From Candidatus Levyibacteriota bacterium (lineage in GTDB: Bacteria > Patescibacteriota > Microgenomatia > Levybacterales > UBA12049): a DNA stretch of 64,000 bases. The stretch lies in contig JBEKQZ010000001.1 of the NCBI GenBank assembly GCA_049519175.1, positions 224,043 to 288,042 of the forward strand. The letters run 5' to 3'. Every line of letters starts with the position of its first letter. The first letter of the stretch is position 1. Under the pieces are notes generated by a model, which saw only the letters and a list, made by a program, of their open reading frames with translations, was not told the DNA's origin and did no database searches. The translations under genes were made by a program, and so were the position numbers. This document shows positions 17,802-50,278 of the stretch, in pieces.

Positions 17802-17805
17802 TTTT

Positions 17806-19455
17806 ATGAATAAAAAATGGATTTGGATTATTTTAATTGGAATAATAATGCTGGCTGCGGGATTAAGATTGTGGCAGCTCGGCAACGTTCCACCATCGCC
17901 CGATTGGGACGAAGTTGCCCTAGGCTACGATGCCTATTCAATTATTCACACGGGGCGTGATGAATTCGCACAGTTTTTGCCCGTTGTTCTTCGTTCATTT
18001 GACGATTACAAGCCGGCTCTATATGCATATCTTTCCATTCCGACAGTATTAATATTTGGATTAGATGTTTTCGCGGTTAGGCTCCCATCAGCTATTTTTG
18101 GCATCATTTCCGTTTTCGCGGTTTTTTGTCTTGTTCAGGAATTGTTTAAGGAAAATAAATATAAAGATCACCTAGCGCTACTGGCGGCATTTCTTTTAGC
18201 AATTTCTCCATGGTCGCTGCAATTTTCCAGAGTCGGTTTTGAAGCAAATGTCGGGGACACTTTAAATCTTTTGGCCGCTCTGTTTTTCGTTAAAGGCGTA
18301 AATAGTAAGCGGTGGTTTCTATTTATTTCGGCTTTTTTTGCAGGATTAAGCATTTACGTTTATCAAAGCGAAAAAGTTTTTACGCCGTTATTTATACTTT
18401 TATTGGCAATTATTTATTGGAGAAAGCTGTTTGCAATTTCTAAAAAATATTTATTTATTGTTGTAGTCTTCGGATTAATCGTAGTTACACCAATGCTTTC
18501 CTACATAGTCACTAATCGAGCGGCGTTACTAAGAGTCACGGGGACAAGTATCTTTTCTTATCAAACCCAGCTTTTGCAAAACGATATTCAGAAATTACAA
18601 CAGGACACGGTAAATCATGATCAGCTCGGTTTAATTTTAGACAACCGAAGATTTATTTTTGCGTCAACAATAATTTCCGGTTATATTATTCATTTTGATC
18701 CAAACTGGCTTTTTGTAACGGGGGATATCTCAAGACATCATGCGCCAAACATGGGATTAATCTATCTTTTTGAAGTGCCGTTTATCTTATTTGGCATTTA
18801 TACGCTTTTATTCGGTGAGTTTGATAAAAAAACAAAGCTGGTTGTTTTTGGCTGGTTGCTACTGGCTCCTGTTCCGGCGTCTATTACCACCGGCGTTCCT
18901 CATGCAGTAAGAACTTTGAATTTTCTACCGACCTGGCAGATTCTTTCGGCGATCGGGATTTTGTTTGCTTTTATCTTCTTTAACAAATATAAAAAAACAA
19001 AATATATTTTCTATTTGATTTTTATAGTTGTTTTCGTCTTTAATTTCGCCTATTATCTGGACCAGTATTTTGTCCAGCAAAATTATTATAATTCTCAGGA
19101 TTGGCAATACGGTTATCAACAGGCGGTAGCGGAAGTAAAAGCAATCGGAGGAAGTTATCACCAAATTCTTGTTTCCGATACGGCACCGCTGGACAAATCA
19201 TATATGTTTTTTTTGTTCTATCTTCAATATCCGCCGCAAGAATATCAGATAGTAGGTAAAAATAGTTCTGGTGGTTTTACTTCTCATCACTCTTTCGGAA
19301 AATATATATTTCGAACAATTGATTGGAATAAAGATTCTCATTTGAAAAACACTCTGATCATTGGCAACCCTTCAGAAATTCCCAGCGGTGTCGGAGTCAT
19401 AAAAACGATATATGATCTAAATGGTAACCCGGCGATAAAAATAGTTGGAACATGA
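17806..19455 (+). CDS. ArnT/PMT-like membrane glycosyltransferase, paralog
   Basis: PDWDEVALGYDAYSI, AVRLPSAIFG and LAISPWSLQFSRVGFEANVG. The ATG at 17806 begins MNKKWIWIILIG, matching the paralog N-termini. The ORF-track start at 17785 is TTG. Confidence 0.7.
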   Translation: MNKKWIWIILIGIIMLAAGLRLWQLGNVPPSPDWDEVALGYDAYSIIHTGRDEFAQFLPVVLRSFDDYKPALYAYLSIPTVLIFGLDVFAVRLPSAIFGIISVFAVFCLVQELFKENKYKDHLALLAAFLLAISPWSLQFSRVGFEANVGDTLNLLAALFFVKGVNSKRWFLFISAFFAGLSIYVYQSEKVFTPLFILLLAIIYWRKLFAISKKYLFIVVVFGLIVVTPMLSYIVTNRAALLRVTGTSIFSYQTQLLQNDIQKLQQDTVNHDQLGLILDNRRFIFASTIISGYIIHFDPNWLFVTGDISRHHAPNMGLIYLFEVPFILFGIYTLLFGEFDKKTKLVVFGWLLLAPVPASITTGVPHAVRTLNFLPTWQILSAIGILFAFIFFNKYKKTKYIFYLIFIVVFVFNFAYYLDQYFVQQNYYNSQDWQYGYQQAVAEVKAIGGSYHQILVSDTAPLDKSYMFFLFYLQYPPQEYQIVGKNSSGGFTSHHSFGKYIFRTIDWNKDSHLKNTLIIGNPSEIPSGVGVIKTIYDLNGNPAIKIVGT

Positions 19456-20939
19456 AAAGATTTCTTAAGTTTGATTATCTAGCTCTAGTATTAGTAATTC
19501 TTGTGGGTTCATATCTGAGGCTCCAAGCAGTGTCTACTAATTCTTTCGCTTTTACCTATGACGTTGGAAGAGATATGTTGGCACTTTCAAACATAGTGCA
19601 CCTACATAAAATTCCGTTGATTGGAGCTACTACCGGACTGCCGGGGATATTCTACGGTCCCTGGTGGTATTACATATTGACGCCATTTTTTATTATTTTT
19701 TCCGGAGACCCCCGTGGAATTGCCCTGACGATGTCTTTGATTGGAATTTTAACGCTTTTATTAAGCTTTTTTGTCGGTAGAAAGGTTGGAGGAAATTCTT
19801 TAGGCTTAATTTTTGCTTCTTTGATTAGCGTGTCGGGGATTATGATAGCTTTATCATCACAGATTTGGAATCCAAACATAGCACCATTTTTTGTAATTCT
19901 TATTCTCTTGATATTAGATAAGATTTTTGAAAAAAATAAGAAAAGTAAAGCATTTTTTTATTTTCCTTTGGGCATTTTGCTTGTCTTAAGTATTGATGTT
20001 GAAATTATTTATGGGCTTTTATTATCAGCCGGAATAATTCTTTCTTTGTTATTAATTCAACGGAAACTTAATTTGAAATCTCTTCTTCTTTTTGGGTTCG
20101 GAGGTCTAATTATTATTGCTCCAAGAATTATATTTGAGCTTAGGCACCAATTTTTAATGACAAAAGCTTTAATCGCTTTTCTGATGTCGGGTAATTCTTC
20201 ACATAGTGTTTTTACAATATTTTATAATTTTATCGATAGAATCAATATTCTATTTAACCAATTTGCGTCAACTCTTGCCAATGATAATAAACTTCTGGCG
20301 GGACTGGAGATTGTGTTCGTAATCCTCTCAATAGCGGTTTTCTATAAAAAGTCCGATGTAATAATAAAGAATTTTATTAAGATTTCATTAACAGTAATAT
20401 TAACTTTTCTGGTAGGGATAACTTTTTTTAGTCATGACATTTGGCCCCACTATTTGGTTGGACTGCCGGTTTTTTATCTTTTACTTTTTGCAATCGGCGC
20501 TTATTTGTTCGCCAAAAACTTTTCTGCAAAATTAGCAGGTTTGATAATTTTATTAATTTTTCTGATAAACTTAAATCCATATTCTTTGTTTCAAAACTTA
20601 AATAGGCCATTATGGGAGGGCGACGCGTCAGTTTATCGTAATCAAGTCGCAGTTATAGACTACGTTTATAAACAGGCTGCGGGAAAACCTTTTAAATATG
20701 TTGTCTATACCCCCCCGGTCTACGATTATACCTATCAATACCTATTTAGTTGGTACGGCCCCAAAGTTTATCACTATTCTCCCCAAGTTCAAGCAAATTT
20801 GGCATATTTTATTCTAGAACCGGATTTACAATATCCCTCAAGACTTAGAGATTGGTTAAGTCAGCGGGAAGCGGATGGGAGAATAATTAGGTCGCAAGAA
20901 GTAAAAGGAGGAATTACTGTTCAGACTAGGGTTCATTAA
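19452..20939 (+). CDS. Polytopic membrane protein, GT-C-like family A paralog
   Basis: FAFTYDVGRDMLALSNIV..IPLIGA..YGPWWYY. The conserved C-terminal domain is KPFKYVVYTPPVYDYTYQYLFSWYGPKVYHY. Confidence 0.5.
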   Translation: MKRFLKFDYLALVLVILVGSYLRLQAVSTNSFAFTYDVGRDMLALSNIVHLHKIPLIGATTGLPGIFYGPWWYYILTPFFIIFSGDPRGIALTMSLIGILTLLLSFFVGRKVGGNSLGLIFASLISVSGIMIALSSQIWNPNIAPFFVILILLILDKIFEKNKKSKAFFYFPLGILLVLSIDVEIIYGLLLSAGIILSLLLIQRKLNLKSLLLFGFGGLIIIAPRIIFELRHQFLMTKALIAFLMSGNSSHSVFTIFYNFIDRINILFNQFASTLANDNKLLAGLEIVFVILSIAVFYKKSDVIIKNFIKISLTVILTFLVGITFFSHDIWPHYLVGLPVFYLLLFAIGAYLFAKNFSAKLAGLIILLIFLINLNPYSLFQNLNRPLWEGDASVYRNQVAVIDYVYKQAAGKPFKYVVYTPPVYDYTYQYLFSWYGPKVYHYSPQVQANLAYFILEPDLQYPSRLRDWLSQREADGRIIRSQEVKGGITVQTRVH

Positions 20940-20942
20940 TTT

Positions 20943-22490
20943 ATGAAGATAAATTTAAATCCTATTGTAAAAAAAGTAAAGGCGCTGTTAATAAATAAGC
21001 GAGCGAGATGGGCAATATTTTTTTTCCTTTTAGTGTTAATAGTTTTTTTGTCAATATTCCCCAGAGCGGTAGAAGTGCTTAACAATAATCCAATATTCGG
21101 TTTTGATCAAGGAAGAGAAATGCTGGCTGCTAAGAATATAGTCGTTAACCATAAATTAATTTTAATTGGCACGGAAGTGGGAGCAGGTGTTGCTGGAATA
21201 TCGGGAGTATTCCATGGGCCAATTTATTATTATATGTTAACCATTCCTTTTATCCTTTTTAATGGTAATCCGCAAGGTGGAATTTATCTGATGTTTTTGT
21301 TTGGATTAGCGTCAATAGTTTTTGGATATTATTTTGGCAAAAAATTATTTGGGAGATGGGGAGGAATGTTGCTAGCGCTTTTAATTAGTATTTCACCGCT
21401 TTTCATAGCGCAATCAAGGTTTATCTGGAGTCCTAATCCGCCTACGCTATTTATACTTCTTTCGTTATGGTTTACGTATCTGTTAAAAGAAAAGAAAAGT
21501 ATATATATTTTTCTTGCTGCCTTTTTCGCTGCTTTTGTTTACAATTTTGAACTTGGCATTGCTGTTCCACTATCTCTCACTCTTTTAATTTACTGCGTCT
21601 TTCTTCTTAGACGAGATTTAAAGAAACTGTTGTATCTATTTGCAGGGTTTATCCTTGGTTATCTGCCGATGATTCTTTTTGAGGTACGCCATAATTTCTT
21701 AGGCACAAGGGGGATTATTAGTTATATTTTGAGTCATAAAGCAGTTGCTTCTTCGCATCCCGGTTCTTACTATCTGCTTGATCATGTTAAATCATTTATT
21801 AATTATTTCCAAGGTACTTTTCCTACCAATTCTTGGGATTCTCTGATATTAGCATTAATAATAATATTCTCTTTATATTTCTTGATTAAAGAAAAGAATA
21901 TTGCTTTTAAACATTTTTTTAGTTTTCTGCTTTTATTAATTCCGGTAACTTTTTTCGTCTTTTCTCCGTTAAGAAATACTGTTTATGGAATTTACTTACA
22001 GCATTTAGATATCGCTTACTTACTGCTTTTTTGCTACATAATTTATTCGTTTATTAACAAAAAATTAAAATTGCTGTTTATAGCGTCGCTTATATTTATT
22101 ATGGTTATGACCTTATTGGGATTACGAAATGCAATTAAGGTATCGCTTTATGACTATTCAGATTATGGAGGAACGGCAAAAATAAAAGGGAAAATTGATG
22201 CCATAGATTACATCTATAAGGATGCAAAAGGCAAACCATTTGGACTACTGGTATTTGCCCCCGGTGTTTATACATATCCCTATGATTATCTTTTGTGGTG
22301 GTACGGGCAAAGAAAATATCACTACATTCCATATGGTGAGAAAAAAGGCACTTTTTATTTGCTCATCGAGACAGATCCTTATCAGCCCTGGAGCTATAAG
22401 GGATGGTTGGAAACAGTCATAAAGACCGGTAATATAGTTTATACAAAAACTTTACCCAGTGGTTTCATTGTGCAAAAAAGAGTTAATTGA
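20943..22490 (+). CDS. Polytopic membrane protein, GT-C-like family A paralog
   Basis: FGFDQGREMLAAKNIV..LILIGT..HGPIYYY. C-term is KPFGLLVFAPGVYTYPYDYLLWWYGQRKYHY. Confidence 0.5.
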   Translation: MKINLNPIVKKVKALLINKRARWAIFFFLLVLIVFLSIFPRAVEVLNNNPIFGFDQGREMLAAKNIVVNHKLILIGTEVGAGVAGISGVFHGPIYYYMLTIPFILFNGNPQGGIYLMFLFGLASIVFGYYFGKKLFGRWGGMLLALLISISPLFIAQSRFIWSPNPPTLFILLSLWFTYLLKEKKSIYIFLAAFFAAFVYNFELGIAVPLSLTLLIYCVFLLRRDLKKLLYLFAGFILGYLPMILFEVRHNFLGTRGIISYILSHKAVASSHPGSYYLLDHVKSFINYFQGTFPTNSWDSLILALIIIFSLYFLIKEKNIAFKHFFSFLLLLIPVTFFVFSPLRNTVYGIYLQHLDIAYLLLFCYIIYSFINKKLKLLFIASLIFIMVMTLLGLRNAIKVSLYDYSDYGGTAKIKGKIDAIDYIYKDAKGKPFGLLVFAPGVYTYPYDYLLWWYGQRKYHYIPYGEKKGTFYLLIETDPYQPWSYKGWLETVIKTGNIVYTKTLPSGFIVQKRVN

Positions 22491-22492
22491 CT

Positions 22493-23788
22493 ATGGAAAC
22501 AATTAAAAAACTTTGGAAATTTTTGCTTAAAAATAAATACTTTATTGTTATAACAATAATATTCCTATTTGAAGTATTTCTCCGATTTTATCAGATGGAC
22601 GTCAAGAGCCCTTTCGGTTATGACCAGGTTGATAATGCCTGGGCCGCAAAAAACATCATCGTCAATCATTGGTTTCCTTTGGTGGGGATGGTGGCGAAGG
22701 GCAACAGCAATATCTATATTGGTCCAGCCTATTATTACATGATAGCCGTTGTTTATTGGATTTTTAACCTAAATCCAATTGCTTCGGCTGTTTTTGCGGG
22801 ACTGACGAGCATTTTCACTTTTTGGGTAATATTTTATGTTGCTAATAAATTATTTTCCAAAGAAGTGGCTCTATTCGCGGTTTTTATCAACACCTTTTTT
22901 CTTCCGGCCATATTCTTTGATAGAGTGCAATGGCCGGTTAACCTAATACCACCAATCTCATTATTAATATTTTACGTTTTGTATAAAATAACTTTGGGGG
23001 AAGTGAAAAAGATTATTATTCTAGCGCTTTTAGTTGGTTTCTCTTTTAGCGTGCATTTCACTTCAATTTTTTATCCGATTATTATTATTTTAGCTCTGCC
23101 ATTTTTCCCCAAGACCAAAGAAACTTTAAAATATGTACTTTTATCTTTGCCCTTATTTTTAATTTGGTTAGTTCCCAATATTATTTATCAAATCCAGCAG
23201 AAATCTGCCGGGTCAAATATCACGTCTTATTTACAAACCTATTATCATGGTTTTCATTTGACGAGGGTTAAACAACTGACGGGAGATGCACTTATTCAAT
23301 TTAACGCTTATTCATTCCTGGACAGACTTACTCCGTTAAAGTTTATTGCTCTTCCCGTCTTTTTTCTGGCATTTCTTTATAAATCAGTCAAAAGAGAAAA
23401 ACTTATTCTTTGCTATCTTGTTCTACTCTGGTTTATTGTCCCCTGGTTTATTTTTGCTATGTATAGTGGGGAAATCAGCGATTATTATTTTTCGATTAGT
23501 AGGTTTATCGCGCTTTTGATTGTCGCATATTTTTTTGCCAGAGTCTGGGCGGTAAAAAATATAATTCCGAAAGTCGCGGTTTTAATAGTGCTCGCTTATA
23601 TAGGGATAACAAATCTTCTTTATGATATTCCTTATCAAGATAACGGCTTAAAAGACAAGGAGAAGAATGTTCTAAGGGTAGTCAATCAGGGTGGGTGGAT
23701 AGATTTCAAAGTAGGTGCTCCGGGATCTTATTTATACTATTATTATATGAGGCAGAAAGGAATAGACCCATATGCAGCTAAAAAATAA
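22493..23788 (+). CDS. Polytopic membrane protein, GT-C-like family A paralog (shorter)
   Basis: FGYDQVDNAWAAKNIIVNHWFPLVG..IGPAYYYM. ATG at 22493. The ORF-track start at 22487 is TTG. Confidence 0.45.
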   Translation: METIKKLWKFLLKNKYFIVITIIFLFEVFLRFYQMDVKSPFGYDQVDNAWAAKNIIVNHWFPLVGMVAKGNSNIYIGPAYYYMIAVVYWIFNLNPIASAVFAGLTSIFTFWVIFYVANKLFSKEVALFAVFINTFFLPAIFFDRVQWPVNLIPPISLLIFYVLYKITLGEVKKIIILALLVGFSFSVHFTSIFYPIIIILALPFFPKTKETLKYVLLSLPLFLIWLVPNIIYQIQQKSAGSNITSYLQTYYHGFHLTRVKQLTGDALIQFNAYSFLDRLTPLKFIALPVFFLAFLYKSVKREKLILCYLVLLWFIVPWFIFAMYSGEISDYYFSISRFIALLIVAYFFARVWAVKNIIPKVAVLIVLAYIGITNLLYDIPYQDNGLKDKEKNVLRVVNQGGWIDFKVGAPGSYLYYYYMRQKGIDPYAAKK

Positions 23789-25412
23789 ATTAATAATTGC
23801 CATTTTAGTTGTGCTTTCAATTATCTCGGTGTTGTCCCTTGTCCATACGGGACTGCCTATCACCCACGATGGGCAAGATCATGTTGCAAGAATCGCCAAC
23901 TTCTACCAAAACCTTGTCGAAGGCAACTTAATTCCGAGATGGGCTGCGAATCTCAATTGGGGATACGGACATCCGATTTTGGAATTTTTATATCCCTTGC
24001 CTTCTTATTTTGCTTCTTTTTTTCATCTGATCGGTTTCTCTCTGGTTGATTCGTCAAAAATTGTCTATGGTCTGGGAATGATTTTATCTTTATTCTTCAT
24101 GTTTTTATGGCTCAAGCAATTTTTGGGTAAAGAGCCGGCACTGCTTGGTGCATTTTTGTATACCTATGCTCCTTATAGATTCGTCGACCTTTATGTCAGA
24201 GGGGATATCGGTGAGAATTTGGCTTTTGCATTCGTGCCTTTGGTTTTATATTTTATTTTTAAACTTTACAAAGAACCCAACCTAAAATACTCGTTGTTAG
24301 GCGCTTTGTCTTTGGCTCTTTTGGTAATGGCTCACAATGCGATAGCTCTTATTACAATCCCTTTTATATTCCTTTATGGAATTTATTTAATCTATATTTC
24401 GAAAAATCGTAAATCATTATTCGTTAATCTTTCAGCGTTAATTATATTCGGTTTTGCTCTGTCGGCTTTCTTTTGGGTACCTGCATTACTTGAAGGGAAA
24501 TTTACTTTAAGAGATATTGTTACAAAAGGCGGATATGTCAGTCGCTTCGTTAATTTTAAGGCTTTAATCTATGGGCCGTGGAGTTATGGTGGAAGCGGCG
24601 TATTTACGCAGCAACTGGGAATAATACAGTGGTTAGCCTTGCTTATTTCACCTGTTTTAGCTTTTGTTTTTTGGTTGAAAAAAGATAAAAATTATCTACT
24701 TGTTCTAACCTGTCTTCTGTACACTTTGTTGGCAATATTTTTAATGCTTCCTCTCTCAAATTTTCTTTGGGCAAGAATAATGCTTTTACAAAACTTCCAA
24801 TTTCCCTGGCGTTTTTTAGCAATTACCGTTTTCGCAACAGCGGTATTGGCTGCTTTACTAATTCATGCAATTCCTAAAAAATTACAGTTAATTGTTGTGC
24901 TGATTTTAATTGCATTGGTTTTGTTTGTAAGCAAGGATTACGTAAAAGCAAAAGGCTATTTGTATAAGCCGGTCAGTTTCTATACCGGAATATACTCCGG
25001 AACGACGGATACCGGTGAGAGCAGTCCGATATGGTCCGTGCGGTTTATGGAGCATTTTCCAAAAGCGCATTTAGAAGTTTTGGACGGGAAAGCAACCGTC
25101 AAAGAAATAAAAAGAACATCTATGGAACATCAATATACAGTAACCGTTGCGAAAAGGACTTTATTTGAAGAAAACACGCTCTATTTTCCGGGATGGGAAA
25201 TAAAGGCAAATAATGCCCCCGTTAATGTTCAGTTTCAGGATATGCAATATAGAGGAACCATGTTATTTTTTCTGGAGAAAGGAAATTATACTGTCGAAGC
25301 CAAGTATTCCGAAACTAAATTAAGGTTAATCTGTGATCTGATTTCTTTAGTTAGCTTAATTACTTTGGGTGGTTTATTTATCTTCGGGTTTGTAAAGCGG
25401 AGATTTTCCTAG
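23772..25412 (+). CDS. Polytopic membrane protein with YfhO-like C-terminal domain (distant YfhO/PTPS-related-like)
   Basis: The N-term has LPITHDGQDHVARI..W..NWGYGHPILEFLYPL. The C-term (YFPGWEIKANNAPVNVQFQDMQYRG..GNYTVEAKY, then a final TM helix) resembles the YfhO paralog C-termini in this window. Confidence 0.45.
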   Translation: MQLKNKLIIAILVVLSIISVLSLVHTGLPITHDGQDHVARIANFYQNLVEGNLIPRWAANLNWGYGHPILEFLYPLPSYFASFFHLIGFSLVDSSKIVYGLGMILSLFFMFLWLKQFLGKEPALLGAFLYTYAPYRFVDLYVRGDIGENLAFAFVPLVLYFIFKLYKEPNLKYSLLGALSLALLVMAHNAIALITIPFIFLYGIYLIYISKNRKSLFVNLSALIIFGFALSAFFWVPALLEGKFTLRDIVTKGGYVSRFVNFKALIYGPWSYGGSGVFTQQLGIIQWLALLISPVLAFVFWLKKDKNYLLVLTCLLYTLLAIFLMLPLSNFLWARIMLLQNFQFPWRFLAITVFATAVLAALLIHAIPKKLQLIVVLILIALVLFVSKDYVKAKGYLYKPVSFYTGIYSGTTDTGESSPIWSVRFMEHFPKAHLEVLDGKATVKEIKRTSMEHQYTVTVAKRTLFEENTLYFPGWEIKANNAPVNVQFQDMQYRGTMLFFLEKGNYTVEAKYSETKLRLICDLISLVSLITLGGLFIFGFVKRRFS

Positions 25413-40677: not shown

Positions 40678-41634
40678 ATGAAGAATAATCCGATCTATAA
40701 TACGATAAAATTAAAAGTTTTTAATAGAGGTTCTGTGGCGATATATCCAATAGTTTTAAAAAATCTTATGATAGATAAAGTTCGAACACTATTTTTATTA
40801 ATTCTAGTTAAAACTATTCGTTCCCGTTTTCTCGTAAAAACAATACGGGAGATTGACATTGATAAGCAGTCTATTTTGCTACGGCTTGAGAATGGGACAT
40901 CGTTTTTTCTTCCTACAGATAAGATTGACTCTTTAAATGGACTGCTGAGCGGAAAATTCGAAGAATCGGAAACCAGCCGCATGATTAAATATATTAAAAA
41001 GGGAGATGTAGTTTTAGATATCGGAGCAAATTATGGATTTTATACTGTTTTATTTTCGAAGTGGGTTGGTCAAGAAGGCAGGGTGCACGCTTTTGAACCC
41101 TTGCCATGGGCGATAACTCTGCTGGAGAAAAATTTATTGCTTAATAAAGCAACAGAAAACACTATTGTTAATAAATTTGGGTTGGGGGATAAAAAAAACA
41201 CAGCCGTAATATATAAATATGCTTGGTGTGATTCGGGATGGAGTTCTATGGAAAAACATGGTTGGATACCAACCAGCAATTCAAGATGTAAAATCATTAC
41301 GCTTGACGCTTACGTTAAAGAAAAGAAAATAAATAAGGTAGATTTCATAAAATGCGATATCGAAGGCGGGGAGCTTCCTGTATTTAAAGGGGCTCGTGCT
41401 ACATTAGCGAAATTTTCTCCTGTGATAATCTTCGAAGTTCTAAAGGCGTACGAAAAAGATTTTAACTATAAACCGCACGAGCTATATGATTATTTAACTT
41501 CATTAAATTATGACATATATAACGCGAGAGGAGATAAATTACGTTTAATTAAAAGTAATGAAAGTCATAGTATGTGGGGGTATTATTTAGCGATTCCACA
41601 TAAACATAAAAATACATTCAGCAAACATGAGTAA
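40678..41634 (+). CDS. FkbM-family SAM-dependent methyltransferase with N-terminal extension
   Basis: VLDIGANYGFYTV..VHAFEP..FIKCDIEGGELPVFKGA is typical of the FkbM (Methyltransf_21) domain. Confidence 0.75.
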   Translation: MKNNPIYNTIKLKVFNRGSVAIYPIVLKNLMIDKVRTLFLLILVKTIRSRFLVKTIREIDIDKQSILLRLENGTSFFLPTDKIDSLNGLLSGKFEESETSRMIKYIKKGDVVLDIGANYGFYTVLFSKWVGQEGRVHAFEPLPWAITLLEKNLLLNKATENTIVNKFGLGDKKNTAVIYKYAWCDSGWSSMEKHGWIPTSNSRCKIITLDAYVKEKKINKVDFIKCDIEGGELPVFKGARATLAKFSPVIIFEVLKAYEKDFNYKPHELYDYLTSLNYDIYNARGDKLRLIKSNESHSMWGYYLAIPHKHKNTFSKHE

Positions 41635-43678
41635 GAAAATATCTTCAAGAATAAAAATGCCTAGAAGAATCTTACTCTTTCTAATTTCTACATCATTTAT
41701 CCTGTTTGTCCTCTCTTTAGGCTATTTCCTTTTCGTAAATAGTGATCAGACAAATAACACACCTTACTACAAAGCGTCCGGTGCGCAAAACACTAATCTC
41801 ACGATAATTACACAAAAAGAATCGTGGTCAAAACAAAATCCTCAAAACTTGACTGAGCTATTTGCAAAAAAAACGATTGTAGGAACTTTTGTTGCGCAAG
41901 CCGATAACTTGGGGATTATCGAAATTCCTTTTGATACACATAACAGAAGTATCGATGATAAAGTCATTTTCCGCATAAAGGCAAACGGAGAAAAGAATTG
42001 GTATTTTCAAAGCGTCTACAATGCCGGTCAATTCCAAACAGATGTTCCTTTCCCTTTTGGTATTCCTGTAATCAAGAATTCTAGAAATAATAGGTATACC
42101 TTTGAAATCGAGTCGCTGGATGGAAGACCGAATAACTCAATCTCCTTAAGTAAAGCCAGTCCCTATTTCTTCAGTAAATACAAATTTTCTAAGGCAGAAC
42201 TGACCAGAAATCCTTTAACGTTGATTCAATTCATTGTTGTTAAAGCAATTAATCAGTTACCGCTTCTTACAGGTTACGAAATTGTTATCCTAGCCCTTTT
42301 TATACTTGCTCCCTTTTTACTCTATTTTGTTTTAATAGACTCTATAAGGAGGTTTAAGAAGTGGGTTGAAGCTACTATTCATTTAATTTCCGCGGCCAAG
42401 ATTAAAACATATCTGTCGCGATTGAAAAGGGTAAATTATAATTTGAGATACGCATTGGATAGAAAAGATAAGATAAGACTTTGCTGTTCGATAATTAGCG
42501 TTGGTTTGTTCTCCTCAGTGGCTTTTCATTATTTTCAAGGAGCGTATTATGGGCAAGGCTTTCCTCGGAATACATTTATTCCTAACTGGTTTTTTGGTGA
42601 TTTTTTTGCCGTTTTTGAACAATGGAGAAACTATCAATTTAACGGGATAGGGTTTGGTTTGTCTTATTTTCCGGGGACATATCTATTTATGGATTTGATG
42701 ACAAAATTATTTAATGCATACGTTGCGGTTCTGATAATGCTTATTTCTTTTACAGTCTTTCTATTTGCCTATACCTATAAAAATGTCAAAATTAATAAAA
42801 TCCTGGAATCTCTACGGAATGCTTTTATTATTTCCCTAATGTCTTATCCTTTTCTCTTTGCATTTCAAACTGCCAATCTTGAAATAATTACTTTTATAGC
42901 TGTCTGTCTGTTCTTTATCTTTTACAAAAAACATAAAACACTTAGTGTACTAGCTCTAGCATATGCCATTTCGATGAAACTTTTCCCCGGAGTTTTTATC
43001 ATCTTGTTATTGTTGGAAAAAAGATTTAAAGACATATTCTTAACTTGTGTATTCACTGTTTTCTTTACAATTTTACCTCTGCTTATTTTTGACGGAGGAT
43101 TCAACAAGGGCATCGGAAACTATATAAATAATTTTAAAGGAAGCCAACAACTATATTCCAACTTAATGATTCTAGGCGAGTCGGGGAATCATTATGGTCA
43201 TAGTCTATTAAATGGTTTTAGAGCTCTGTTTCCTTGGGTATTTCCTTCATCAATAGAGCCTATTCTATTTTCCTATATAATTTTTATTTCAATCATTACA
43301 TTGGCTATTATTGGTTATCTTTTCTTCTTTGAAAAAACATTCTGGAAAAGGGTAGCCTGTTTAGTGATGATGATGAACCTATTTCCTTTCACTTCTACAG
43401 ACTACAAGTTACTTTATATTTTTTTACCCTTGTTTTTTCTGATAAATCATTTAAAAAAAAGTAAGTATGATGCTATTTTTATCATCCTTTTCTCTTTGTT
43501 ATTGATTCCTAAGGATTACTTTTATTTTAATAATAACGCTTTTTCTAATCTTAATGTTGTTGCTAATCCAATTATTATGTCAACAATATTATTGTTAATC
43601 ATTTTCTTAGGGATTAAACAGAGCTTAGGTAAGGTAAGAAATACAGTCAATAATAAATTATTTAGTAAAATAGCGTAA
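41627..43678 (+). CDS. Membrane protein: signal-anchor + novel conserved extracytoplasmic domain + GT87/DUF2029-like polytopic GT-C-like domain
   Basis: N-dom: DNLGIIEIPFDTHNRSIDDKVIFRIK..NWYFQSVYNAGQFQTDVPFPFGIPVI..FEIESLDGRPNNSISL. C-dom: AYAISMKLFPGVFIILLLLEKRFKD..LPLLIFDGGFN. It is the tandem paralog of the 43684 gene. Confidence 0.5.
   Translation: MSKKISSRIKMPRRILLFLISTSFILFVLSLGYFLFVNSDQTNNTPYYKASGAQNTNLTIITQKESWSKQNPQNLTELFAKKTIVGTFVAQADNLGIIEIPFDTHNRSIDDKVIFRIKANGEKNWYFQSVYNAGQFQTDVPFPFGIPVIKNSRNNRYTFEIESLDGRPNNSISLSKASPYFFSKYKFSKAELTRNPLTLIQFIVVKAINQLPLLTGYEIVILALFILAPFLLYFVLIDSIRRFKKWVEATIHLISAAKIKTYLSRLKRVNYNLRYALDRKDKIRLCCSIISVGLFSSVAFHYFQGAYYGQGFPRNTFIPNWFFGDFFAVFEQWRNYQFNGIGFGLSYFPGTYLFMDLMTKLFNAYVAVLIMLISFTVFLFAYTYKNVKINKILESLRNAFIISLMSYPFLFAFQTANLEIITFIAVCLFFIFYKKHKTLSVLALAYAISMKLFPGVFIILLLLEKRFKDIFLTCVFTVFFTILPLLIFDGGFNKGIGNYINNFKGSQQLYSNLMILGESGNHYGHSLLNGFRALFPWVFPSSIEPILFSYIIFISIITLAIIGYLFFFEKTFWKRVACLVMMMNLFPFTSTDYKLLYIFLPLFFLINHLKKSKYDAIFIILFSLLLIPKDYFYFNNNAFSNLNVVANPIIMSTILLLIIFLGIKQSLGKVRNTVNNKLFSKIA
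42961..43092 (+). repeat. About 132-nt tract nearly identical (1 mismatch) to 45012-45143 in the tandem paralog (gene-conversion tract)
   Basis: By direct comparison, atatgccatttcgatgaaacttttccccggagtttttatcat[c/t]ttgttattgttggaaaaaagatttaaagacatattcttaacttgtgtattcactgttttctttacaattttacctctgcttatttttga is shared. The flanks diverge. Confidence 0.7.
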
Positions 43679-43683
43679 GGTAT

Positions 43684-45732
43684 ATGAGCAAACAGATTTT
43701 TTTAATCAGGCGCATTTCCAAAAGAACATTTTTCTTTTTGATTCTCACATCACTTGTCCTGTTTGTTCTCTCTTTAGGATATTTCCTTTTCGTAAATAGC
43801 GATCAAACAAATAACACCTATTATTATAAAGAGTTAGGTAGACAGGATACCAGCATTACAACGATTACGTTAAAGGAATCTTGGTCAAAGAATGTCTTAC
43901 AAGACAGAAAAGCATTGCTGACGAAAGAAGTCATTGAAGGAAATTTTATCGCGCGAACCGATAATTTGGGAACAATCGCCATACCATTTGATACACACAA
44001 TAAGAGCATTAACGATAAGGTAATTTTCCGTTTGAAAGAAACGGGGCAGAAAGAGTGGTATTTTCAAAGTATTTACAATACGAGTCAATTTCAAAATGAC
44101 ATTCCTTTTCCCTTCGGTTTTCCTATAATCACAAATTCAAAGGATAAAGCTTACACATTCCAGATAGAATCATTAACAGGGAAATATAATAATTCTATTT
44201 CCCTTAATAAGACTAATGGCTATTTCTTTAGCAAATATCAATATTCTAAAGCGGAATTAATAAACAATCCTTCCAGACTGGTTCAATTTCTTACTATTAA
44301 AATCAATGCTCAATTACCATCATTTACTCCAATTGAGGGTTTTTACGCACTCCTCTTTGCTTTAGCTCCCTTTTTACTCTACCCGATTCTAAGAACGCGT
44401 AGTAAGCAGCTTAAAAAGCTGATTAGGACTAAGAGGGCACTATTTACAATAACTAACATCAAAACATATCTTTTGTATTTAAAAAGAGTCAGTTATAATT
44501 TGAGTTACTCTTTGAAGAGAAAGGATAAAATTAAAATCTGCGCTTTAATAGTTAGCGCCGGTTTTTTCTTCGCGGTGGGCTTTCATTTTTTTCAAGGGAT
44601 ATATTATGAAAGAGGGTTTCCCGTAAATTCGTTCTTGCCTAATAATTTTTTTGGTGATTTTTTTATTGTTTTCAATCAATGGAACTGGTATAAATTTAGC
44701 AGTTTTGGTTTAAATTATTTTCCGGGAGCCTATCTTATTGTCGATTTATTAACGAAACTTTTTACTGCATATACAGCAATTGTTATTTACCTATTCTTCT
44801 TTATTACCTTTATATTCTCATACACATACATAAATGTTAAGACAGATAAAGTAATCGAATCTTTGCAATATGCTTTTATCATTTCCTTAATGTCTTATCC
44901 TTTTCTTTTCGCTTTTAACACCGCTAATTTTGAAATAATTACCTTTATATCTATTTGTTTATTTTTTATTTTTTACAAAAAACATAGAACACTTAGTGCT
45001 CTAGCCCTGGCATATGCCATTTCGATGAAACTTTTCCCCGGAGTTTTTATCATTTTGTTATTGTTGGAAAAAAGATTTAAAGACATATTCTTAACTTGTG
45101 TATTCACTGTTTTCTTTACAATTTTACCTCTGCTTATTTTTGATGGAGGATTTAATAACGGAGTAGGGAATTATATTAATCATTTTAGCCGGAGTATGAG
45201 CGCATACGCCGAGTTAATGGTCGTAAGCGGCGCAGGAAATCACTACGGCCACAGTTTGTTAAATGGTCTTTTTGCGCTTTTTACCTGGATGTTTCCTCTT
45301 CTAAGACAAATTATGCTTCCGTATATAATTATTATTTCGATAAGTTCAGTAGTGATTATTTTATATCTTATATTCTTTGAAAAAATATTTTGGAGAAGAG
45401 TCGCATGCCTGGTTATGATGATGAATCTTTTTCCCATTGTTTCTACCGATTACAAATTGCTTTATGTTTTTATACCGTTGTTTTTATTTATTAATTATTT
45501 CAAGAAGGACAAATACGATACTCTTTTTATTATTCTTTTTAGCTTATTATTAATCCCTAAGGATTATTTTTATTTCAATGGCGACCCATACATGAGCTCT
45601 AATATTGTTGCTAATCCGTTGATTATGTCGGTGATATTATTAGCTATTATATTATCAGGATTAAAACCATTAAGTCTTTTTGCAAACGTGATTCGAAGAA
45701 GATTTCGAATTTTGAGTAATTTGGCAAGTTAA
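43684..45732 (+). CDS. Membrane protein: novel conserved N-terminal domain + GT87/DUF2029-like GT-C-like domain (tandem paralog)
   Basis: DNLGTIAIPFDTHNKSINDKVIFRLKETGQKEWYFQSIYNTSQFQNDIPFPFGFPIIT..FQIESLTGKYNNSISLN. C-dom identical peptide AYAISMKLFPGVFIILLLLEKRFKDIFLTCVFTVFFTILPLLIFDGGFN. Confidence 0.5.
   Translation: MSKQIFLIRRISKRTFFFLILTSLVLFVLSLGYFLFVNSDQTNNTYYYKELGRQDTSITTITLKESWSKNVLQDRKALLTKEVIEGNFIARTDNLGTIAIPFDTHNKSINDKVIFRLKETGQKEWYFQSIYNTSQFQNDIPFPFGFPIITNSKDKAYTFQIESLTGKYNNSISLNKTNGYFFSKYQYSKAELINNPSRLVQFLTIKINAQLPSFTPIEGFYALLFALAPFLLYPILRTRSKQLKKLIRTKRALFTITNIKTYLLYLKRVSYNLSYSLKRKDKIKICALIVSAGFFFAVGFHFFQGIYYERGFPVNSFLPNNFFGDFFIVFNQWNWYKFSSFGLNYFPGAYLIVDLLTKLFTAYTAIVIYLFFFITFIFSYTYINVKTDKVIESLQYAFIISLMSYPFLFAFNTANFEIITFISICLFFIFYKKHRTLSALALAYAISMKLFPGVFIILLLLEKRFKDIFLTCVFTVFFTILPLLIFDGGFNNGVGNYINHFSRSMSAYAELMVVSGAGNHYGHSLLNGLFALFTWMFPLLRQIMLPYIIIISISSVVIILYLIFFEKIFWRRVACLVMMMNLFPIVSTDYKLLYVFIPLFLFINYFKKDKYDTLFIILFSLLLIPKDYFYFNGDPYMSSNIVANPLIMSVILLAIILSGLKPLSLFANVIRRRFRILSNLAS
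45012..45143 (+). repeat. Partner copy of the 42961-43092 near-identical tract
   Basis: See the 42961-43092 entry. Confidence 0.7.
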
Positions 45733-45741
45733 CCATAAGCT

Positions 45742-48700
45742 ATGAAAATCATATCTGGGAAAAAAACTCTATTACTTTTACTTTTCTTATCAATCGGCAT
45801 ATTTGCTTTATGTTTCTTTTATGTTTTATTTATAAATAAAGGGGCATTGGATAGCGGAGATTATTATAAATCCTCTCAGGGACAGTATGGCTTGACAACT
45901 CTTATAGCAAAAGAATCTTTAACAAAATCTCCGGCAAATCAGGAATTATCGGCAAAAAAAACACTTAATCAAAATTTTACCGCTCGATTTGATAACTTGG
46001 GAACAATAGCCCTGGCATTTGATACAAACAACAGAAGTATTAACGACAAAGTTGTTTTTCGCCTAAAACAGAGAGATCAAAAAGACTGGTATTACCAAAA
46101 TACATACAACGCTAATCAGTTCCAGAATAATATTCCATTCCCTTTTGGTTTTCCTGTTATATCAGATTCAAAGAATAAATCCTACTCAATACAAATTGAG
46201 TCATTGGAGGGTAAGTCCGGGGAGTCCTTAATTATAAGCGAAAACAATAAAAATTTTCTTAGCATATATAAATATTCTAAATCGGAATTAATCAATAATC
46301 CTAAGGCGATGATTCAATTCTTTGTAAATAAAATTAATACACAAATTCAGTTAATTGCAATAAATGAAATAATTTTGATGACATTCATAATTGTTTTGCC
46401 CCTGCTTATGTATCCGTTATTAAAACCTTTCCCCTTAAAGATTATTTTAAGACATAAAGCACTTATTTTTTTGATAGTTTTGCTTACCGGCATGTCTCTA
46501 ATTTTATATAGGAGTTATATTTTTGGCGGAAAACTTTTTCTGTTCGAAGATTTCGGAAGTGATTCCGTAAGAGTATCGCTGCCGACTTATATTTTTCTTT
46601 TTGATTGGTTTAGAAATGGAATGCCATTATGGTCAGATAAAATGGGAATAGGAACCAGCGTTTTGTCTCATAACGAAATTATTTTCGACCCCTTTACATA
46701 TATCCTGTTTCTCTTTGGTAAAGCAAACATAATTTATATGTTCGTGTATATGGTTATAACGAAAATAATTCTGGCAGGGGCATTCTTTTGGGCATTTTTA
46801 GGAAAATTCAGCAAATACAAATTGTCTTCTTATGCGAAGATTATCGGGGCGCTAACTTACGCATTTGGGGGATATATGATTGTTACAGGTCAAAACTATG
46901 TCTTTGCGACGATGTATGTTTACCTACCGTTGATTCTATTAGGATTTGAAATATGGTTGCAAAGCAAAAAGAAATGGCCATTAATTTTAATGTTGACTCT
47001 TACAGCTTTATATTTCTTTTATTTCTTTTATATGACCGCTGTTTTCTTCGCCGTTTATGCTATTTTTAGATATTTTACAGTCTACGTTTACAAACCCAAA
47101 CATTTCTTAAAATATTTGTTCACATTGGCTTCATATGGCCTTGTGGCAATAGGAATAAGCGCTTTCTATTGGTTGCCATCAATGATATTAACGCTCAGCA
47201 ATATAAGAATTGCTTCATCCTCGCAATCTCTCGATACTCTGTTTACATTTAACCCAAGCAACGTAATAACAGTATTTTCTCGTCTTCTTGGAGTAGATGC
47301 ATTGGGTGGCCCAATGAATTACGTGGGGCAGGATGCCGATTACTTTCAGCTCGTTACTTACGCAGGAATTATAACAGCCTTATTAGTGCCTCAAATATTC
47401 TACCAGTTGAGTAAAAAAACAAAAAAACCATTTATTATTTTTAGTATAGTGTTGGCGATTTTTTTGTTCGTTCCGTTTTTCTCCTATGTTCTAAACGGCT
47501 TTAGTATTATTTCTTATCGCTGGATATATTTCTTATTTTTCGTTTCGTCGCTCTTTTTATCTCTGGTTGTAAACTTTATTTTCGAAAAAAAGAGGATAAG
47601 TTTTAGACTCCTTATATTAACTGCCGGTTTTTTAGTTCTAATTTCATTAATCGCAATAATCTACCCGGTTCCTATAAAGGCGGATGGGATATTTAATATA
47701 TTAAATTCATACATCCATTCCTCAATAGTTCATAGATATCTTTTAAATAACTTCAGGGTGTTTCTTAAGGACTACATTTTTATAGCTGCATACCTAGTGT
47801 TGATTTTCCTGCTCTTTAAAACAAGATATAAGAAATTTATCATGGCCACAGTCTTAGCTTTAGTCTGTATAGAATTGGTTTGGTTCCCTACGCTCTTTAT
47901 AAATAATAGATTAACTACTTCCCCCGACCCTATAAAAAATCATCTTGGCTATTTTGATTATACAAATGAAGCGGTAGCCTATATTAATTCTATCGACACG
48001 AGTATTTATAGATTGGATAAGTCTTATGATTCGGTTAAATCCGAATATGGAATAATACCTTCAGATAATGAAGCAATGGCCCAAAATTACAGGGGGCTTA
48101 AAAACTACGTATCCAATAATCAACCAAACTATATCCGCTTTCTGCAGAAAGCGGATATATTTGTATATTATCCTAATCCCAATTTTCCTCCGGCAAAAGG
48201 AATGAAGCCCGAAGACTTTAAAGACGCTAATCTAAATTACATTAACGGAGTAGGAAATAGATACATATTGCAAACTTTTTTAGGGGTTAAATACTATTTA
48301 ACCAATAAATATTTTGACGGTCAGTTGCCTGGTTATTTCCATTATGTAAAAACAGTTGATGGTATTAGTATTTACGTAAATGATTATTATTTACCTTTGG
48401 GAATGACTTTCGACAATTTTATAACCAGCAATGAATTTGCCAAGCTAAATAATTCTTCCAAAGATTTAGCGTTGTTATCATTTGTCGTTATTGATGATCC
48501 AAAAGAATTGGGAAACATAATAAGTAGAAGCGATGCAAGTAAATTAAGCGAAATCTCACCGGAAAATATAGGGAACATCATCGGTGACCGAAGAAAAGAT
48601 TCATTGAAATTAATTTTCTACAAAGAAGATAGTCTTAAGGGAAGAATTTCTATTGTAGGAAATAAAATTCTTGTTTTAACAATTCCTTACGACAAGGGTT

Positions 48701-49005
48701 GGACAGCCTATGTTGACGGGAGCAAGGTAGTAACGTTAAAGGTTGAGAATGGGCTAACCGGTATCAAATTGTCCCCAGGTAAGCACATTGTTGAGCTAAA
48801 GTATTTCCCACAGGGAATGACTGCCGGAATAATAATTTCCCTCGTAACCTTGTTGTTGTTGCTGATAATTGCCAAATTTAAAAAAAAGATATCAAAAGCA
48901 ATGGCTCAAATTAATAAGCTTTCAATGCTATACTACAAACATTACCTGAGTAAACCATTTAAAAAAACGGTGAAAGTCTTAGAACGTTTTAGCAATGAAA
49001 TTTAA
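45742..49005 (+). CDS. Large membrane protein: novel conserved N-terminal domain fused to YfhO-like glycosyltransferase
   Basis: N-dom: FDNLGTIALAFDTNNRSINDKVVFRLK..DWYYQNTYNANQFQNNIPFPFGFPVIS..IQIESLEGKSGES. YfhO-like loop: PLWSDKMGIGTSVLSHNEIIFDPF. YfhO-type C-term: YDKGWTAYVDGSKVVTLKVENGLTGIKLSPGKHIVELKYFPQG, then a final TM. 1087 aa. Confidence 0.6.
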   Translation: MKIISGKKTLLLLLFLSIGIFALCFFYVLFINKGALDSGDYYKSSQGQYGLTTLIAKESLTKSPANQELSAKKTLNQNFTARFDNLGTIALAFDTNNRSINDKVVFRLKQRDQKDWYYQNTYNANQFQNNIPFPFGFPVISDSKNKSYSIQIESLEGKSGESLIISENNKNFLSIYKYSKSELINNPKAMIQFFVNKINTQIQLIAINEIILMTFIIVLPLLMYPLLKPFPLKIILRHKALIFLIVLLTGMSLILYRSYIFGGKLFLFEDFGSDSVRVSLPTYIFLFDWFRNGMPLWSDKMGIGTSVLSHNEIIFDPFTYILFLFGKANIIYMFVYMVITKIILAGAFFWAFLGKFSKYKLSSYAKIIGALTYAFGGYMIVTGQNYVFATMYVYLPLILLGFEIWLQSKKKWPLILMLTLTALYFFYFFYMTAVFFAVYAIFRYFTVYVYKPKHFLKYLFTLASYGLVAIGISAFYWLPSMILTLSNIRIASSSQSLDTLFTFNPSNVITVFSRLLGVDALGGPMNYVGQDADYFQLVTYAGIITALLVPQIFYQLSKKTKKPFIIFSIVLAIFLFVPFFSYVLNGFSIISYRWIYFLFFVSSLFLSLVVNFIFEKKRISFRLLILTAGFLVLISLIAIIYPVPIKADGIFNILNSYIHSSIVHRYLLNNFRVFLKDYIFIAAYLVLIFLLFKTRYKKFIMATVLALVCIELVWFPTLFINNRLTTSPDPIKNHLGYFDYTNEAVAYINSIDTSIYRLDKSYDSVKSEYGIIPSDNEAMAQNYRGLKNYVSNNQPNYIRFLQKADIFVYYPNPNFPPAKGMKPEDFKDANLNYINGVGNRYILQTFLGVKYYLTNKYFDGQLPGYFHYVKTVDGISIYVNDYYLPLGMTFDNFITSNEFAKLNNSSKDLALLSFVVIDDPKELGNIISRSDASKLSEISPENIGNIIGDRRKDSLKLIFYKEDSLKGRISIVGNKILVLTIPYDKGWTAYVDGSKVVTLKVENGLTGIKLSPGKHIVELKYFPQGMTAGIIISLVTLLLLLIIAKFKKKISKAMAQINKLSMLYYKHYLSKPFKKTVKVLERFSNEI

Positions 49006-50278
49006 CAAAGTAATAAAAGTTGCGTTAGCTATTGATATCCGGTTAAAGTTAGGCAAAAAAAAATATATTTTTTACGCCACTACTTTTTTAGGTTTTTTGA
49101 TATTTATCCTAAGCGGTTTATTAACAAGGGGATATAGTCTCTACAGCCTCTTTCAATCTAATAAAACGGATTATTTTATGGATTTTTATAATCCATTATC
49201 GGAATTACTCAACGGACCCTATTCTCATGGGTCAATTTACCCACCATTGCCGCTTTTAATTTACAAGTTTTTACTTCGTTTTGTGCCATATAATATAGTC
49301 TCTCATGGGGCTTTCGCAATTAGAGCCAGTCAAATAGGAGAAATCGTATTTCTTTTCTATTCACTAATAACTTTGTTGACATTCCTGGTTATTCTTAGAG
49401 AAGTAAAGAGAGGGAAAATAATGGAAATATACGGTTTTATCTTCTTCGTTTTATTTTCCGCTCCATTTCTTTTTATGTTTGAGCGGGCAAATATAATTTT
49501 TATTGCTCTACTATTCTCAATGGTATTTGTCTTTTTTAAAGATAGCAAAAACCGTATTATCCGTGAAGTCGCTCTTATCTGTTTGGCGATATCCGCAGGA
49601 GTTAAGCTATACCCTGCTTTATTTGGATTATTGCTCTTAAAAGAAAAGCGGTTTAAAGATACTTTTAGATTATTATTATATGGTATAACAGCATTTATCT
49701 TGCCGTTCTTTGCCGTTGGGGGAATTAGTCAGCTGCTGGTTCTAATTAAAGATATCTTAACTACGTCTAATGGTGCTTTAGATTGGGGAGTAGGTTATGC
49801 GGTGAATATCTTAAGTATTGTCAGAATATTTTATGGTTTCATTGGAGATTTCGGTAAGGGCCCTATTTTCATAGGGAATACTCTGTCTTATCTCGTTTTA
49901 CTTTTTGGAGTCATTTCCGTGTTTCTCCTAAAATCAAAATGGAAAACTGTTGCACTACTTTCTTCGCTTATGATTATGGTTTCGTCCGTAAGCTATGTTT
50001 ATTCGTTGATATTTATGATAATTCCCTTGATTATGTTTTTGGATAGCGAAGAGAAACTAAAACGGATGGATTATTTATATCTTATCTGTTTTATTTTTAT
50101 TTTCGTGCCGCTTACTTTGAATAATATCGATTTTATAAATCGTGGATTTGGGTCGTCAGCTAGGCCTTTAACTCTAAACGTGCTTATTCAAAATATAGCA
50201 CTTCTGACTATGACGGTTACTTTAATTCTTCAAGGATTCCAAGAGGGGTTGAAAGGGAAGAATGCTAAAAAAAATTAA
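48995..50278 (+). CDS. GT87/DUF2029-like polytopic membrane protein (same C-domain family as 41627/43684, lacking the N-domain)
   Basis: YPPLPLLIYKFLL and AISAGVKLYPALFGLLLLKEKRFKD..LPFFAVGG align with the C-domain motif of the 41627/43684 proteins. It contains a 9-A run at 49055-49063 near its 5' end. Confidence 0.5.
   Translation: MKFNKVIKVALAIDIRLKLGKKKYIFYATTFLGFLIFILSGLLTRGYSLYSLFQSNKTDYFMDFYNPLSELLNGPYSHGSIYPPLPLLIYKFLLRFVPYNIVSHGAFAIRASQIGEIVFLFYSLITLLTFLVILREVKRGKIMEIYGFIFFVLFSAPFLFMFERANIIFIALLFSMVFVFFKDSKNRIIREVALICLAISAGVKLYPALFGLLLLKEKRFKDTFRLLLYGITAFILPFFAVGGISQLLVLIKDILTTSNGALDWGVGYAVNILSIVRIFYGFIGDFGKGPIFIGNTLSYLVLLFGVISVFLLKSKWKTVALLSSLMIMVSSVSYVYSLIFMIIPLIMFLDSEEKLKRMDYLYLICFIFIFVPLTLNNIDFINRGFGSSARPLTLNVLIQNIALLTMTVTLILQGFQEGLKGKNAKKN

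Follow-up and report, generated by a model that had tools for sequence, protein, structure and literature searches.

Probable recent gene conversion between two diverged tandem GT87-family glycosyltransferase genes in a Candidate Phyla Radiation genome

The 64,000-nt stretch of DNA analysed here (the window) contains two adjacent genes, A and B, which encode related glycosyltransferases and are strongly diverged except for one internal tract of nearly identical sequence (Table 1). We attribute this tract to a single recent event of short-tract, non-reciprocal ectopic gene conversion in which gene B served as the donor and gene A as the recipient, a reading to which we assign a probability of about 0.88. 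A preliminary description of this DNA had proposed recent localized conversion between the two genes. This proposal is in agreement with the permutation of silent codons, with the difference in synonymous divergence (dS) inside and outside the tract, and with the comparison to a related metagenomic contig (L001) that carries an orthologous gene pair (A1 and B1) and provides both the direction and the timing of the transfer.

Table 1. Positions in the window of the two genes and of the tracts that they share.
Feature	Position	Strand	Description
Gene A	41627-43678	+	683 aa; GT87-family GT-C glycosyltransferase; probable conversion recipient
Gene B	43684-45732	+	682 aa; tandem GT87 paralog, 6 nt downstream of A; probable conversion donor
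Core converted tract in A	42959-43092	+	134 nt, residues ∼445-489; B-type sequence
Donor tract in B	45010-45143	+	98-100% identity with the B1 ortholog
Probable fuzzy 5′ extension of the tract	42920-42958	+	5 mismatches in 39 nt; A-type and B-type states mixed
5′ patch, membrane-anchor codons	41684-41767	+	Paired with B 43741-43824; 13 mismatches in 84 nt

Both proteins can be assigned to the GT87 family, as their bit scores against the Pfam model (PF09594) are 37.4 for A and 42.4 for B and thus lie above the gathering cut-off of 25 bits. This is consistent with the GT-C-like family named in the preliminary description, and a protein of the A/B type resembles the GT-C fold of a solved member. 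Gene A encodes a CBM-like beta-sandwich and an N-terminal membrane anchor, and the product of gene B is identical to protein P0004. The use of a polyprenyl-phosphate donor by the two enzymes is putative. The dN/dS ratios against the L001 orthologs are 0.15-0.18 for the A/A1 and B/B1 pairs (∼0.15 for B versus B1), so both genes were taken to be functional. They belong to a long cluster in which genes for glycosyltransferases and for sugar modification lie on the same strand, and of the 51 ORFs in the window that encode 150 aa or more, all but one are on the + strand. In L018, the corresponding place upstream of YfhO is taken by a single-copy B-type gene. An IS1-transposase Pfam match in gene A (E = 0.0012) was under the threshold of that family and was treated as a chance hit. 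Overall, A and B share 69% nucleotide identity and 63% amino-acid identity, in line with the earlier statement that the paralogs have diverged over most of their length; the uniformly high identity along the pair that would point to a simple recent duplication was not seen. With silent sites that are saturated (dS ∼2), A and B are either old duplicates or divergent alleles that were placed in tandem.

Within the core tract, A and B differ at one of 134 positions (43003, ATC versus ATT). The tract had originally been delimited as 132 nt (42961-43092) with a single mismatch, which is the same base, and about 190 nt had been described as shared with fewer than a dozen differences; the wider tract at 42920-43110 contains 10 differences in 191 nt. 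Exact repeats between the tracts of A and B are 89 and 44 nt long. The peptide that had been reported as identical in both proteins comprises 49 aa (A 445-493, B 443-491) and is contained in an identical stretch that actually extends over 52 aa. Between the two genes, dS is 0.07 over the 45 codons that overlap the tract and ∼2.0 elsewhere. Gene-wide, 59% of the codons that specify the same amino acid in A and B are nucleotide-identical, and up to 29 identical silent codons follow one another without interruption (43 when one mismatch is allowed). Neither value was reached in any of 20,000 permutations of the silent codons, in which the maxima were 26 and 32. The top-scoring silent segment (42920-43090) has 51 of 54 codons identical, with a score that was reached in 0 of 5,000 permutations, and the second-best segment has a permutation P of 0.78. 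Codon bias and amino-acid conservation were ruled out as the cause of this pattern by a control block (43310-43480) in which the protein is equally conserved but just 18 of 38 silent codons are identical, together with the silent-site counts in distant homologs given below. No further near-identical repeats were found within the window by all-against-all blastn.

The comparison with orthologs, which the preliminary description had proposed as a check, places a B-type tract in gene A. Outside the tract, A pairs with A1 (86% identity) and B pairs with B1 (92%), and the whole-gene identity of A and B1 is 70%. Over the 45 codons that overlap the tract, A differs from B1 at 2 sites and from its own ortholog A1 at 19, and the comparison of A1 with B1 gives 19 differences in 135 nt. 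The corresponding identities in the tract are 97-100% for A-B1, 98-100% for B-B1, and 78-90% for both A-A1 and A1-B1. At the informative sites between 42950 and 43091, A carries 19 consecutive B-type states (the permutation maximum is 9, n = 20,000), and the B-type share among all informative sites in A is 23%. The sites immediately upstream (42934-42952) are mostly B-type, with A-type states at 42936 and 42949. Since the tract of A is B-type and not A-type in this comparison, B was copied into A after the lineage of the window had split from that of L001. A-type sequence is absent from the tract of B, which is nearly unchanged relative to B1, and the 98-100% identity of B and B1 indicates that B retained its own sequence and that the exchange was non-reciprocal. 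At position 43070, both A and B have A, and B1, A1, and the outgroup S2 all have C (a Leu to Ile change). As A has the same derived base, the conversion would also be later than this lineage-specific change in B. The direction and timing come from one comparison, with L001 as the sole other lineage that has the tandem pair: the nine loci from an alignment-based metagenome scan included no tandem pair, and a scan of the genome-contig collection found no relatives of protein A. The tract of S2 is about equidistant from the A-type and B-type sequences and gives no polarity by itself.

In the mechanism that we propose, ∼134-173 nt of B would have been copied to the matching site of A, 2,051 nt upstream, presumably by RecA-type recombination. 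The event most likely started in the best-conserved stretch of the pair, which would offer the best homology to the recombination machinery. Judged from L001, the two genes would have been ∼80-90% identical here before the conversion, with exact runs of 14-28 nt. The swap would have introduced ∼8-9 conservative residue changes into a transmembrane hairpin and, given that these changes are few and conservative, it was probably near neutral.

It is also conceivable that the tract was imported into A by homologous recombination from the B-type allele of another strain and not from the resident gene B. This would fit a recombination-prone locus, in which A and A1 form a mosaic with local identities between 72% and 100% (part of their difference in the tract could reflect import of an allele into A1), S2 is B-like at 41833-41900, and the GT87 genes are far more diverged between genomes than their neighbours (57-60%, compared with 85% for YfhO, in L009). 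However, the derived base at 43070 is common to A and B and absent from B1, the closest known foreign allele, and the resident B is the nearest donor and a sufficient one, so import from outside appears very unlikely. Even less probable is an assembly or polishing artefact, in which one copy was assembled or corrected with reads from the other. The window does come from a metagenome-assembled contig (k141_64433; 579,907 bp), but both copies, with their 1-in-134 difference, are also present on one 4,048-bp contig of a separate JGI assembly from another sample (3300017931). This contig (L006) corresponds to window positions 42533-46580 except for a single mismatch (43526) that lies in neither tract; it represents a near-identical strain, and this assembly-level comparison bears on the assembly and not on the history of the genes. 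Moreover, the exact repeats of the tract are shorter than k = 141, the value suggested by the contig name, so no graph tangle would be expected, and the tract boundaries match a clean switch of phylogenetic signal and not contig ends. We see almost no room for selection on the nucleotide sequence itself, be it as an RNA element, an internal signal, or a 63-codon antisense ORF (42922-43113). This ORF covers nearly the exact extended tract, and 9 of 11 homologs keep its frame open, but its ATG is missing in B and the frame mirrors conserved sense codons. As silent sites in relatives also vary, the ORF was rejected as a chance mirror. In this region silent sites vary freely in the L001 paralogs and in all distant homologs (among pairs of the latter, 39-66% of the silent codons in the tract are identical, which equals their level over the whole gene), which argues against a standing constraint at the nucleotide level. 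RNA structure in the tract was no better than in shuffled sequences (fold z-score 0.61), and no Rfam family was found in it, the sole match within 41000-46500 being a sub-threshold L31-leader at 44026-44055, outside the tract.

The history could also have been longer than a single conversion, with the tract acting as a hot spot at which A and B exchange sequence repeatedly, so that the TM6-TM7 hairpin undergoes concerted evolution and the 134 nt are the latest round. We regard this as unlikely, although some observations point in its direction. Between the L001 paralogs, dS is 0.50 in the tract and 2.07 outside it, and A1 and B1 share 27 of 36 silent codons there, compared with 56% over the whole gene. 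On the other hand, permutation of A1 and B1 yielded no significant segment (P = 0.73), dS from 45 codons is noisy, and some non-paralogous pairs have equally high counts in the tract (26 of 35 for B and S09). A hint of older exchange is given by the 5′ patch, a second near-identical segment that had been described near the starts of the two genes. The patch exists, with a core at 41717-41750 that pairs with 43774-43807 (3 mismatches in 34 nt, with a 20-nt exact run), ∼3 nt away from the position first given for B, but it is not significant for A and B, since it falls outside the top three silent segments in the silent-codon permutation. For A1 versus B, all 17 of 17 silent codons in the patch are identical and the exact run reaches 40 nt, with marginal significance (P = 0.02). 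In the patch, B and B1 fall into one group with A, A1, and S2 to which the distant homologs do not belong, so it may be the leftover of an older exchange. It is more doubtful still that the TM6-TM7 hairpin with its donor-phosphate lysine is repeatedly homogenised, with the remainder of each protein left to diversify, above all in the CBM-like domain and the outer loops. If this were true, mosaic concerted evolution would keep the lipid-donor site alike in two enzymes with different acceptors, and recombination in this Candidate Phyla Radiation (CPR) bacterium would tolerate donors that are just ∼85% identical.

Gene conversion between A and B is a clear but ordinary bacterial case, a new example of a known process. 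Ectopic gene conversion is known between bacterial paralogs such as tufA and tufB in enterobacteria and between rRNA operons, and E. coli genomes have reportedly been surveyed with GENECONV by Morris and Drouin. As in those cases, a short non-reciprocal tract of near-identity is found inside diverged paralogs, it is visible at silent sites and as a conflict between the trees of the tract and of its flanks, and its size of tens to hundreds of nucleotides is typical. In contrast to the usual pairs, A and B are unusually diverged (69% at the nucleotide level, with saturated silent sites), and the host is an uncultivated CPR bacterium. The top literature matches contained nothing specific on gene conversion in CPR bacteria, which is not evidence that none exists. 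In surface-polysaccharide loci, such as O-antigen and capsule clusters, diversity is driven by recombination. The present locus is similar in being a same-strand cluster of sugar genes with mosaic glycosyltransferases that are more variable than their neighbours, but here the exchange would have occurred between two genes of one genome and not as a swap of alleles between strains. The concepts of gene conversion and of GT-C enzymes are unchanged by this pair. Its interest is that it would represent a clean and well-polarised case, from a CPR genome, of conversion between paralogs that are highly diverged and would imply that homologous recombination acts in these small genomes on stretches that are just ∼80-90% identical. 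Trees and orthology calls of these GT87 genes will be misled by inclusion of the tract segment.

The near-identity had also been taken to mark a functionally critical catalytic loop, and this interpretation was not supported, as other blocks are equally conserved without nucleotide identity and the segment is a transmembrane hairpin in the structure model and not a catalytic loop. Nucleotide identity should not be taken here as the sign of a catalytic site. All 13 homologs conserve the segment, among them single-copy genes and the L001 pair that has not been converted, so conversion plays no part in its conservation. The tract in the model extends from the end of one transmembrane helix through the lysine K451, an 11-residue helix (453-463), a short loop with the EKR motif, and another transmembrane helix into the beginning of the following outer loop. 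An invariant aspartate, D325, is found in the motif FFGDFF, 120 residues upstream, in a part of the model (residues 300-326) with pLDDT below 50. The GT87 member PimE (PDB 9DM5/9DM7) is a polyprenyl-phosphate-mannose-dependent alpha-1,2-mannosyltransferase of mycobacteria, in which the catalytic aspartate D58 is at the tip of the first outer juxtamembrane helix, and the essential K195 binds the polyprenyl phosphate next to TM6, a helix of 11 residues (PMC12041525). By analogy with D58, D325 in the predicted first outer loop is the probable candidate for the catalytic aspartate. PDB sequence searches with A, with a 13-sequence profile, with the small GT87 at 48995-50278, and with P0020 returned nothing useful and no residue-level alignment to PimE. 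K451, which is invariant among the homologs, precedes the 11-residue helix in the model, much as K195 lies beside the short TM6 of PimE, and from this position it probably corresponds to the phosphate-binding lysine.

Genes A and B of the window encode proteins that exactly match NCBI-named GT87-family glycosyltransferases of a Candidatus Levyibacteriota metagenome-assembled genome (579,907-bp contig). In a codon alignment the two proteins are 63% identical and the two genes 69%. Most windows along it have 50-78% nucleotide identity, with a rise to 98-100% at a single peak, a tract of 134 nt whose sole mismatch, at 43003, is synonymous; the wider stretch around it contains 10 differences in 191 nt. 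This confirms the preliminary description, in which about 132 nt with one difference lay within about 190 nt with fewer than a dozen, encoding a peptide common to both genes. The 3′ boundary of the tract is sharp, between 43091 and 43093, and the 5′ boundary is patchy, from ∼42920 to 42958.

Features of the window discussed in the text (window positions)
Feature	Position	Strand	Description
Seven-gene run	14819-25412		consecutive same-strand genes, 433-556 aa
Gene A	41627-43678	+	ORF, 683 aa; above Pfam GT87 threshold
5′ patch in A	41717-41750
5′ patch in B	43774-43807
Wider A-B stretch	42920-43110
Antisense ORF	42922-43113	-	63 codons
Tract in A	42959-43092
Control block	43310-43480		protein conservation equal to tract
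Gene B	43684-45732	+	ORF, 682 aa, adjoins A; above Pfam GT87 threshold
Tract in B	45010-45143
YfhO gene	45742-49005
Palindrome	48127-48162		36 nt, near-perfect (94%), within 3′ part of YfhO gene
Small GT87 gene	48995-50278

Across the gene, 59% of A-B codons for the same amino acid are identical at the nucleotide level. Identical silent codons follow one another for at most 29 codons, or for 43 if a single mismatch is tolerated, and neither length was reached in 20,000 permutations. The top-scoring silent-codon segment (42920-43090) has 51 of 54 codons identical, a score reached in 0 of 5,000 permutations, and dS is 0.07 in the 45 codons that the tract covers wholly or in part, versus ∼2.0 (saturated) elsewhere. 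Amino-acid conservation combined with AT-biased codon use was considered as a cause; however, only 18 of 38 silent codons are identical in the equally conserved control block, and this explanation is therefore insufficient. As for a function at the nucleotide level, silent-codon identity in the tract is at baseline in distant homologs (39-66%), the predicted RNA fold of the tract is no better than that of shuffled sequences (z = 0.61), and no match was found among the Rfam families searched. The antisense ORF overlaps the tract almost exactly, and 9 of 11 homologs keep its frame open; it was nevertheless rejected, since no start codon is present in B and the ORF mirrors conserved sense codons.

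An assembler or polishing artefact is also unlikely to be the source of the tract, because both copies, with the same 1-in-134 difference, are reproduced in L006, a 4,048-bp contig of a near-identical strain from an independent JGI assembly of a different sample. L006 covers window 42533-46580 and has a single mismatch to it, at 43526. Such agreement goes some way towards the artefact check proposed earlier, although it is not equal to read mapping. L006 (that mismatch apart) and two further short contigs from other assemblies, L007 and L008, are identical to the window and start at 42533 or within the 3′ part of A (43475, 43558); two of the three share the end base 46580, within the YfhO gene. 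These contig ends hint at strain-level variation breaking assemblies.

The direction and relative date of the exchange could be read from L001, a related Logan contig with the same gene order and orthologs of both genes (A1 and B1).

Nucleotide identity between gene pairs (tract identity in 20-codon windows; differences counted over the 45 codons of the dS estimate)
Pair	Whole gene	Tract	Differences
A-A1	86%	78-90%	19
B-B1	92%	98-100%	2
A-B1	70%	97-100%	2
A1-B1	68%	78-90%	19

Sites were taken as informative when B and B1 agree and A1 has another base. A is B-type at 19 of these in a row (42950-43091); the maximum in 20,000 permutations was 9, and the B-type share among all informative sites in A is 23%. 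This run, together with the retention of the B1 state in B, indicates a non-reciprocal B-to-A transfer, in which A was overwritten by B-type sequence and B was unchanged. At 43070, A and B share base A (Ile), where B1, A1 and S2, a single-copy relative gene on contig L002, have C (Leu). The transfer thus appears to postdate a B change specific to the window lineage, which identifies resident B as the evident donor. Observed A-B divergence in the tract is ∼1%, whereas roughly 10% is predicted if conversion had preceded the L001 split. The earlier gene-conversion reading is thereby supported and given a direction and a relative date; ectopic gene conversion is already well known in bacteria, and the tract is a further instance.

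The AlphaFold model has moderate confidence overall (pLDDT 59.9) and good confidence over the tract (76-88), where helix 437-450 is followed by K451, an 11-residue helix (453-463), the loop E464-K465-R466, helix 467-487 and a loop (488-495) with DGGFN. In PimE, a mycobacterial GT87 mannosyltransferase, the first outer juxtamembrane helix carries the catalytic base D58, the donor phosphate is bound by K195, and TM6 is the shortest helix, with 11 residues (PMC12041525). By position, D325 (motif FFGDFF), 120 residues upstream of the tract, is the likely candidate catalytic base, and K451, within it, the likely candidate phosphate-binding lysine; both are invariant among homologs. Invariant residues make up 17 of 49 in the tract versus ∼17% of the whole protein. 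The same conservation is seen in homologs with only one copy, as well as in the L001 pair with its unconverted tract, and is therefore not a product of conversion; the proposal that near-identity marks a functionally critical core is unsupported as argued. Rather, conservation accounts for where conversion could start: being the best local homology, with exact runs of 14-28 nt in the unconverted state, this segment could seed it. Judged against A1 or S2, 8-9 residues of the hairpin were altered by the transfer, mostly conservatively. D489 of A, at the 3′ edge of the tract (codon 43091-43093), aligns with Asn (FNGGFN) in A1 (L001 1883-3907, protein P0002) and Asp (FDGGFN) in the other 12 homologs.

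The second, 5′ patch of the preliminary description exists (3 mismatches in 34 nt), but it is absent from the three best-scoring A-B silent-codon segments, the second of which already has P = 0.78. Between A1 and B it contains a 40-nt exact run with 17 of 17 silent codons identical (P = 0.02). In this patch the B and B1 sequences cluster with those of A, A1 and S2, a grouping that does not extend to distant homologs. The pattern is compatible with, and only suggestive of, an older exchange before the L001 split.

Among the loci compared, the tandem pair occurs only in the window lineage and L001, and seven other loci have one copy. The slot upstream of YfhO holds a B-type gene in one relative (L018) and an A-type gene in L002. 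GT87 genes are far more diverged between genomes than their neighbors (in the relative L009, YfhO 85%, FkbM 75% and GT87 57-60%). A-A1 identity is a mosaic, from 100% (41867-41927) down to 72% (42557), and the L002 gene is A-like overall and B-like at 41833-41900. This pattern suggests that alleles were exchanged between strains, or that a tandem pair collapsed. The locus resembles a surface-glycan cluster prone to recombination, and A and B could be divergent alleles that came to lie side by side, not the products of a simple duplication in place.

The YfhO gene downstream is far longer in two relatives with one GT87 copy in the slot (L002 10154-14581, L003 8027-12511; 1,475-1,494 aa). Each of these long genes contains a GT87-like tblastn match to A, and that of L002 is annotated with YfhO and GT87 domains; the separate YfhO and small GT87 genes of the window therefore appear to be fused there. 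Six genes of the seven-gene run match the PMT_2 family of GT-C glycosyltransferases (14819-16189 and 23772-25412 below gathering score); the remaining one, 19452-20939, is without a Pfam match. Downstream lie YfhO, a further PMT_2 gene and three GT87 genes, and together with the run they form a set of lipid-linked-sugar transferases that is unusually dense for a small CPR genome.
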